Shown in pieces: positions 5,480-5,758 of a stretch of 6,317 nucleotides of DNA (positions are counted from its first letter, which is position 1; each line of letters begins with the position of its first letter). Under the pieces are notes generated by a model, which saw nothing but the letters and a program-made list of their open reading frames with translations, was not told the origin of the DNA and did no database searches. Source of the stretch: a virus (taxonomy: Duplodnaviria > Heunggongvirae > Uroviricota > Caudoviricetes); the IMG/VR virus record IMGVR_UViG_2778261069_000001. One strand, given 5' to 3'. Position numbers and translations under genes: made by a program.

Positions 5480-5521
5480 CAGCATGATTGCCACGGATGG
5501 CAACGTATTAATGGCATAATA

Positions 5522-5568
5522 TTGACTTTTTGAATAACTTTGGGTAAATTTGACGCCAACAATGGGTG
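5522..5568 (+). promoter_or_regulatory. Late promoter pR' with embedded Q-utilisation (qut) region: -35 TTGACT (5522-5527), 17-bp spacer, -10 TAAATT (5545-5550), then the promoter-proximal pause element AACAAT (5558-5563, lambda AACGAT)
   Basis: The sequence attgactttttgaataactttgggtaaatttgacgccaacaatgggt is near-identical to lambda pR'/qut as I recall it. Similarity to lambda ends right after ATGGGT (about 5567). Confidence 0.82.
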
Positions 5569-5758
5569 TTTTTTGCCTGCCATTGATGAATCTCAATAAC
5601 CTGCCACCGAGTAGTTTTTATGCCCTGAATTGTATTTGTGTAGTAAACATGCTGACTGCAATGTAATAGAGTTTTTTTAGCCTGTAACCTCTTGACGGCA
5701 TTGAATTGCTTTTGTTATGAGTTGTAAGCCAATGTTATCATCTTGTATTGGGGTGGTT

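Follow-up and report, generated by a model that had tools for sequence, protein, structure and literature searches.

A lambda-type late promoter joined to a cargo cassette without a canonical intervening terminator in a lambdoid prophage

Late control in related phages

In the textbook scheme of lambdoid phages, a terminator stands directly after the constitutive late promoter, and everything downstream waits for the antiterminator Q. Phage lambda, with its Q-qut/pR'-6S RNA-tR' module, has a strong tR' at +135 to +189 (-26 kcal/mol, with a U-tract) and a 6S RNA of 194 nt. Phage 434 has another Q and another late promoter, and an intact terminator directly before its late cargo cassette shields the cassette from that promoter. 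In Stx phages, the constitutive late promoter is active in lysogens and cargo lies between Q and the holin gene, with tR' placed directly after pR', so that stx is Q dependent; the pR'-tR' unit of these phages yields the small RNA StxS (PMC7547250), a by-product of antitermination control at the first terminator. Morons, such as lambda bor and lom and the HK97 morons, are AT-rich inserts with their own promoter-like element and terminator, are found in unrelated contexts, and are, as a rule, shielded in the lysogen from the late transcription of the phage.

Overall, the locus described here is the known Q/pR'/tR' scheme varied by mosaic recombination. It shares with lambda the Q protein, both promoter hexamers, a near-identical spacer, and the pause element and GGG at +1 to +9, but its homology to lambda ends at +10 and is followed, as judged from near-identical loci, by about 1.4 kb without a terminator. 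With phage 434, it shares the leader, the membrane-protein gene, the DUF3927/TciB-like gene, and the PasD/STnc100-like terminator, whereas Q, promoter, and intact terminator differ. As in Stx phages, the cargo lies between Q and holin, and a small RNA is found at the first terminator; here, however, that terminator comes after the cargo genes. The insert resembles morons in being AT rich (GC content, 0.37 to 0.41 versus 0.52), in carrying a promoter-like element and a terminator, and in occurring in unrelated contexts, but it is placed immediately downstream of an unterminated pR'.

The window and its late promoter

The window (the whole 6,317-nucleotide stretch analyzed here) is a 6.3-kb replication-nin-Q segment of a lambdoid prophage, and the annotation of near-identical loci is concordant with this. 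The following features are referred to below.

Window gene content: O with iterons, P, ren, ninB, an N6-adenine methyltransferase gene, ninE/F/G/H, a Ser/Thr phosphatase gene, and Q.
4856 to 5479, plus strand: Q, late antiterminator gene of the lambda type (open reading frame; 203 of 207 aa identical to lambda Q).
5522 to 5550, plus strand: late promoter pR' by promoter scan, with -35 TTGACT at 5522 to 5527, a 17-nt spacer, and -10 TAAATT at 5545 to 5550.
5558 to 5567, plus strand: presumed transcript start and AACAAT followed by GGGT, the last lambda-homologous stretch (alignment; end of the lambda match).
5568 to 5597, plus strand: junction filler containing a T6 run at 5569 to 5574, with no match in phage records except phage 2B8.
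5598 to 5619, plus strand: decayed remnant of the late terminator of phage 434 (Q82-like), AACCTGCCACCGAGTAG followed by T5 (alignment to 434).
5620 to 5691, plus strand: AT-rich leader common to phage 434 (identity to 434), with a T7 run at 5672 to 5678 that has no usable stem before it.
5692 to 5721, plus strand: candidate promoter P1 (prediction; conserved layout), TTGACG at 5692 to 5697, an 18-nt spacer ending in TGt, and TATGAG at 5716 to 5721.
5712 to 5741, plus strand: candidate promoter P2 (prediction; consensus scan), TTGTTA at 5712 to 5717, an 18-nt spacer with TG, and TATCAT at 5736 to 5741.
5750 to 6317, plus strand: ribosome binding site (RBS) GGGGTGG at 5750 to 5756 and the first 186 codons of the gene for a 238-aa membrane protein, starting at ATG 5759 and running beyond the end of the window.

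The Q protein belongs to the lambda family, with 98% identity to lambda Q. The -35 and -10 hexamers of pR' are identical to those of lambda, and the spacer has the same length. Within the spacer, which by sequence is the Q-binding region, there are three differences from lambda, one of which is common to HK97 and HK022; a Q-binding element is thus predicted together with the lambda hexamers. The GC content falls from about 0.52 in Q to 0.375 to 0.395 over positions 5500 to 5799. In the upstream part of the window, a phage N6-adenine methyltransferase gene is present at 2536 to 3063, between ninB and ninE, as indicated by the open reading frame list and by the annotation available for the identical region. 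The O gene contains, at 481 to 563, four ori iterons of the lambda type (ATCCCTCAAAACGAGGGA and variants); the sole Rfam match of the window, snR191 (E = 0.32), falls on these iterons and is spurious.

End of the lambda homology

In a megablast comparison, lambda (J02459) positions 44430 to 44596 correspond to window positions 5400 to 5567, and the match ends there. The same endpoint was found for HK97, HK022, and about 100 other lambda-Q phages when phage records were searched by megablast. By analogy to lambda, we take the +1 of the pR' transcript to be at about 5557 to 5558 (A5558), and we assume a pause role for positions 5558 to 5563 from established knowledge of lambda pR'/qut. On this numbering, the last homologous position is +10, and a sigma70 pause-inducing, -10-like element is present in the first transcribed bases (5558 to 5566), in which AACAAT (5558 to 5563) and GGG are kept, versus AACGAT and GGG in lambda. 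Compared with TATAAT, the pause element matches at four of six positions in the window, at five of six in 2B8 and O157 (AATAAT), and at three of six in lambda.

The pause positions themselves, +16 and +17, are unlike those of lambda; the T6 run (5569 to 5574, corresponding to +12 to +17) occupies them instead. Among the surveyed lambda-type pR' variants, this T6 run is present only in the junction family described here, where it occurs in both sub-variants even though the flanking bases differ (one copy has T5). A more distant search for the origin of positions 5564 to 5632 returned phage 2B8 as the only match. The initial annotation, made from the letters of the DNA, had placed the end of lambda similarity at about 5567 and had described an AT-rich stretch beyond it with three T-runs, all of which holds, the T-run coordinates being correct within 1 nt. 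It had also described lambda similarity as conserved through the pause site, which is right for the pause-inducing element but not for positions +16/+17, where T6 has replaced the lambda sequence.

Search for a terminator between pR' and the membrane-protein gene

Scans that recover control terminators detected no canonical intrinsic terminator between position 5567 and ATG 5759. A calibrated scan for hairpins with T-rich tails gave a best score of -6.2 kcal/mol in the leader, while it gave -15.8 kcal/mol for lambda tR' (-26 kcal/mol when long stems were allowed), -19.9 for HK97, -16.0 for HK022, and -12.9 for 434; overall, control terminators ranged from -12.9 to -26.8 kcal/mol. The stem at 5601 to 5614, before T5 (5615 to 5619), reaches -2.2 kcal/mol, and a floppy, interrupted 44-nt hairpin before T7 (5672 to 5678) reaches -5.4 to -6.2 kcal/mol, no better than shuffled sequences. 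No strong tR' thus lies within about 200 nt of the promoter, the best structures there being either these weak stems (-2.2 to -6.2 kcal/mol) or floppy stems of 48 nt whose tails are poor. As a whole, the leader (5558 to 5760) folds no better than its shuffles (z = +0.38).

Several candidates were considered and discarded. The only one offered by a simple consensus scan, the hairpin at 5552 to 5570, has its 5' arm upstream of +1, and its -6.1 kcal/mol was equalled by 76 of 200 shuffles; its equivalent in 2B8 has -2.6 kcal/mol. When long hairpins and a range of 300 nt were allowed, sequences of the junction class gave hits at -10 to -14 kcal/mol, which are 54- to 62-nt interrupted stems in coding sequence with poor tails. 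A hairpin at the 5' end of the RNA (5560 to 5565 with 5580 to 5585), like one in lambda 6S RNA, was not distinguished from shuffles (z = -0.97 in the window, +0.15 in 2B8).

The leader contains 16% C, 22% G, and 39% T. Because it is C poor and has a positive GC skew (G > C), it would be a poor Rho loading (rut) site. No Rfam family of riboswitches, attenuators, or small RNAs matched the leader in a covariance-model search of the window at E <= 1, and no tRNA was found. Scans, shuffles, and controls therefore agree with the initial annotation, which had seen no convincing terminator downstream of pR'; terminator and fold prediction over 5565 to 5758 likewise gave no strong intrinsic terminator. 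In the absence of a canonical terminator, pR' transcripts should, on sequence grounds, reach the membrane-protein gene without Q.

A decayed terminator of the phage 434 type

Phage 434 is 98.7% identical to the window over positions 5615 to 6317. Upstream of this stretch, 434 has a Q82-like antiterminator gene, its promoter, and an annotated terminator, AAACCCGCTGCCGAGTGGG followed by T8. The aligned segment of the window lacks the GGGT of the 3' arm. As a result of comparing the two, the 434 hairpin was found to have -12.5 kcal/mol (z = -3.4) and a U8 tail, versus -2.2 kcal/mol and U5 for the window relic; that is, the sequence homologous to the 434/Q82-type terminator is present, but not its GC-rich stem directly followed by a U-tract. 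Between the lambda boundary at 5567 and the relic lie 30 nt that occur elsewhere only in phage 2B8.

Decayed remains of the 434-type terminator can still be recognized, which suggests that its loss was incidental to the mosaic junction and not a designed feature. We infer the direction of the change (decay in this lineage versus gain in 434) from one alignment. Within the leader, positions 5613 to 5627 and 5670 to 5684 (AGTTTTTATGCCCTG and AGTTTTTTTAGCCTG) form a direct repeat with 80% identity, and the tail of the relic resembles the surroundings of the second T-run; the repeat may be the trace of an old tandem duplication.

Distribution of the junction

The full junction, from the 3' end of Q through the start of the membrane-protein gene, was found in 572 of 5,426 complete E. 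coli genomes, among which O157:H7 is frequent, and in phage 2B8. The latter is a cultivated temperate coliphage (PMC6969025). Since 2B8 is viable, its junction promoter must drive its late genes. Upstream of the cargo gene, the IMG/VR copies of the cassette fall into two clean classes: lambda Q with the relic (n = 64 full-length copies) and Q82-type Q with the intact terminator (n = 39). No copy among them combined lambda Q with an intact terminator.

To score terminators across lambda-type late promoters, the best hairpin plus T-tail within 210 nt was taken, with wide hairpin limits; narrower limits (a 40-nt hairpin and a strict T-tail) miss the long tR' of lambda and the HK97-type variant with a TTTTCGCG tail. 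Among 78 distinct non-junction sequences downstream of lambda-type pR' in IMG/VR, the median score was -19.9 kcal/mol, and 74 of the 78 scored -15 kcal/mol or lower. The 10 distinct junction-type sequences (66 copies) scored -9.3 to -13.6 kcal/mol, with interrupted hairpins of 48 to 60 nt and tails like TTGTATTG. Our sequence comparisons thus confirm the observation of a missing terminator and show it to be specific and uncommon among lambda-type late promoters. Another lambda-type pR' hybrid in IMG/VR (L212) has kept no more of lambda tR' than its 3' arm and U-tract, about 90 to 140 nt after pR', and its best hairpin has -8.5 kcal/mol. Judging from this truncated tR', mosaic junctions have broken terminators outside the present family as well.

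The pR' -10 hexamer is GAAACT, not TAAATT, in 58 of the 64 junction copies (the O157:H7/2B8 type; L002, the 2B8 locus, positions 4146 to 4151). TAAATT, as in the window, is a minority form in the junction family, and one copy has TAAGTT. The change to GAAACT could be a down-tuning of a promoter that lost its terminator, or drift; together with the AATAAT pause element, it may lower pR' output in that sub-variant.

Over positions 5440 to 5800, E. coli E2 does not differ from the window, and Z1323CEC0010 has the same Q protein and shares the junction sequence; these are the two complete genomes with this junction that were examined. In the prophages of both strains, a truncated endolysin gene is joined to an FI fragment (L003 9117 to 9480 in E2; L126 12647 to 13010 in Z1323CEC0010). 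Both prophages are defective, as they lack the rest of the lysis genes, the terminase genes, and the head genes. Because of these defects, selection on late control may be relaxed in the lineage of the window itself.

The cargo gene and its predicted promoter

All 186 aa of the membrane protein encoded within the window are identical to the product of the E. coli E2 gene. The protein is assigned to PF27470 "TfpB" in a precomputed table and to phrog_1521, and NCBI names it "STM1630 family"; searches of our local Pfam copy and of NCBIfam gave no match, and the PHROG families concerned have no known function. Predictions give it four or five hydrophobic helices and, at the C terminus, a small beta domain; the AlphaFold model has a mean pLDDT of 56.5. 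In the literature, "STM1630" yielded screen-level mentions only, and the Pfam label "TfpB" led to unrelated papers on type IV pili and chemistry. RefSeq annotations place the start codon differently, giving 247 aa (from 5732) or 238 aa (from 5759), as seen at L004 6293, L126 10823, and L003 7320. ATG 5759 has a good RBS; ATG 5732 overlaps a predicted -10 region.

Homologues are encoded by enterotoxigenic E. coli (ETEC) plasmids, where they neighbor eltAB, by other prophages, where they occupy the stx-like slot, and by Salmonella chromosomes. In the window, in L119 (an ETEC plasmid), and in L123 (another prophage), the P1 layout, TTGACG-N15-TGn-TATnnn, precedes the start codon by 67 to 70 nt; the proteins of L119 and L123 are only 59 to 68% identical to that of the window. 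Since this layout is kept in unrelated contexts, the cargo gene appears to have its own promoter, so that its expression in the lysogen would not depend on pR' alone. An identical cassette stands behind the intact terminator in 434; the loss of tR' would therefore change the transcript level and the 5' leader, not the on/off logic. On the ETEC plasmid contigs (L119 to L122), the homologue (4001 to 4714; 59% identity) lies about 0.9 kb from eltAB and near the STb gene, and is flanked by insertion sequences. A 3-kb contig labeled "MAG: Veillonella sp." (L128; JAIITD010000172.1) encodes a protein 100% identical to the prophage membrane protein and is probably a mis-binned E. coli prophage fragment.

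With a foreign composition, homologues in unrelated contexts, and a terminator of its own, which lies beyond the window and is seen in near-identical loci, the cassette looks like an autonomous moron that would be expressed in lysogens whatever pR' does. The initial annotation had proposed that the gene is transcribed constitutively from pR' in the lysogen, as expected of a lysogenic-conversion or defense gene. Such transcription is plausible, and a role as general cargo is plausible as well for an AT-rich gene that is mobile between contexts; a defense function found no support in PADLOC, which gave no match for the membrane protein, the DUF3927 protein, or the neighboring open reading frame.

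Downstream terminators and the PasD/STnc100-type RNA

The region beyond the window was examined in near-identical loci, with the following features.

L003 (E. coli E2), gene order: membrane protein (238 aa), DUF3927/TciB-like protein (52 aa), terminator 1, terminator 2, holin.
L003, 8467 to 8485: first strong terminator, -15.2 kcal/mol, U8.
L003, 8836 to 8864: second strong terminator, -16.2 kcal/mol, just before holin.
L004 (O157:H7), 7455 to 7476: first terminator, -18.4 kcal/mol.

Phages 2B8 and 434 have the same two terminators as E2, and the first strong terminator lies about 1.4 kb downstream of the pR' +1 in near-identical loci. Because at least two strong terminators are present further downstream in these loci, the Q dependence of the lysis genes would be kept.

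The first terminator of O157:H7 forms the end of a full-score match to Rfam STnc100 (144.7 bits; L004 7297 to 7549), with AgvB on the opposite strand. The corresponding regions of E2, 2B8, and 434 (L003 8291 to 8496, L002 5331 to 5535, and L001 5116 to 5320, respectively) give sub-threshold STnc100 matches of 38 to 41 bits over the whole model. This STnc100-like RNA after the DUF3927 gene is probably PasD. Such an assignment agrees with a published account that places pasD immediately before the esterase gene of 2B8 and describes a structural relationship between PasD and STnc100 (bioRxiv 10.64898/2026.05.13.724894). PasD has been detected on Northern blots of uninduced enteropathogenic E. coli (PMC8550237). 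Our scan detected no promoter-like site immediately before the small RNA, so that the PasD/STnc100-type RNA may be the processed 3' end of the cargo mRNA. We hypothesize that it originates from pR'. On the minus strand of E2, positions 8361 to 8759 of L003 are annotated as a gene for a 132-aa hypothetical protein, antisense to both the PasD/STnc100-like RNA and the terminator of that RNA; searches of PHROG and PADLOC gave no match, and the gene may not be real.

Interpretation

We consider it somewhat better than an even chance that the mosaic junction destroyed tR', that pR' reads into the cargo genes, and that the cassette's own terminator acts as the effective tR'. According to this explanation, a lambda-type Q-qut-pR' module ending at +10 would have been joined to a late cargo cassette of 434-type context, and the join itself, or later decay, would have removed the 3' arm of the Q82-type terminator, leaving no functional tR' after pR'. 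RNA polymerase starting at the constitutive pR' would pause at the sigma70-dependent site and, without Q, would continue through the 200-nt leader into the membrane-protein and DUF3927/TciB-like genes. Transcription would stop about 1.4 kb downstream at the PasD/STnc100-type terminator, with the second strong terminator as a further stop just before holin, and Q-modified polymerase would pass both. Lysis and morphogenesis genes would thus stay Q dependent, and the cargo would receive Q-independent transcription from pR' on top of that from its own promoter. The homology boundaries, the relic, the lack of a canonical terminator in the leader, and the downstream terminators of near-identical loci are observed; we infer that pR' is active, that it is read through in the lysogen, and that it may contribute to both cargo and small-RNA expression.

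It is unlikely, though by no means negligible, that transcription is instead terminated or silenced in the leader by a non-canonical route, with the cargo relying on its own promoter and read-through from pR' being negligible. Conceivable agents are the relic hairpin with U5, the U7 run at 5672 to 5678 together with NusA/NusG, Rho acting on the 200 nt of untranslated RNA, and H-NS. The leader does have three T-runs, is untranslated, and has a GC content of 37 to 40%, and Rho and H-NS commonly silence AT-rich DNA of foreign origin in E. coli. Against intrinsic termination stand the stems before the T-runs, which are weak and no more stable than those of shuffled sequences; against Rho stands a base composition (16% C versus 22% G) opposite to that of a rut site; and the leader matches no structured-RNA family. 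A second reading, which we regard as improbable, keeps the promoter at the center: with a weak -10 and a stronger sigma70 pause, pR' would be tuned down or off in lysogens, and the missing terminator would be a tolerated scar of little consequence, located, in the lineage of the window, in a decaying prophage. The prevalence of GAAACT, the closer approach of the junction pause elements to TATAAT, and the defects in E2 and Z1323CEC0010 all point this way, but the window retains the exact -35, spacer length, and -10 of lambda, and the viable phage 2B8, which has the GAAACT form, needs this promoter for all of its late genes.

The T6 run at +12 to +17 suggests yet another possibility, the least probable of those considered, namely, that it acts as a hairpin-less, promoter-proximal attenuator in which a weak rU:dA hybrid frees short RNAs unless Q is loaded, thus replacing tR'. 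The run is confined to the junction family among the surveyed pR' variants and has been kept in both sub-variants despite changes around it; however, two sub-lineages give this conservation little weight, one copy has T5, and we know of no hairpin-less attenuator mechanism established for lambdoid late promoters. Very improbable, too, is an extended form of this proposal, in which the function of tR' has been replaced at the promoter by the stronger pause element, U6 at the pause, and, in most copies, the weakened -10, which together would make up a Q-relieved hairpin-less attenuator; polymerases escaping it would produce a "coding 6S RNA" of 1.4 kb, and the Hfq-binding PasD/STnc100 RNA would be the processed 3' end of this transcript.

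Implications

In the junction family, the first terminator comes only after two membrane-protein cargo genes, and this arrangement is found in about 1 in 10 complete E. coli genomes, including O157:H7, as well as in a viable phage. The likely presence of an own cargo promoter makes the inference of constitutive transcription from pR' matter less than the initial annotation supposed. If read-through does occur, every lysogen would transcribe the cargo genes from a strong phage promoter, and a single recombination event would turn a Q-dependent slot, the slot of stx, into a constitutive one. Likewise, the abundant Hfq-binding PasD/STnc100 RNAs may then be 3'-end products of a basal late transcript, like StxS. 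The main interest of the junction is that it is widespread and that it ties the late promoter to known prophage small RNAs.
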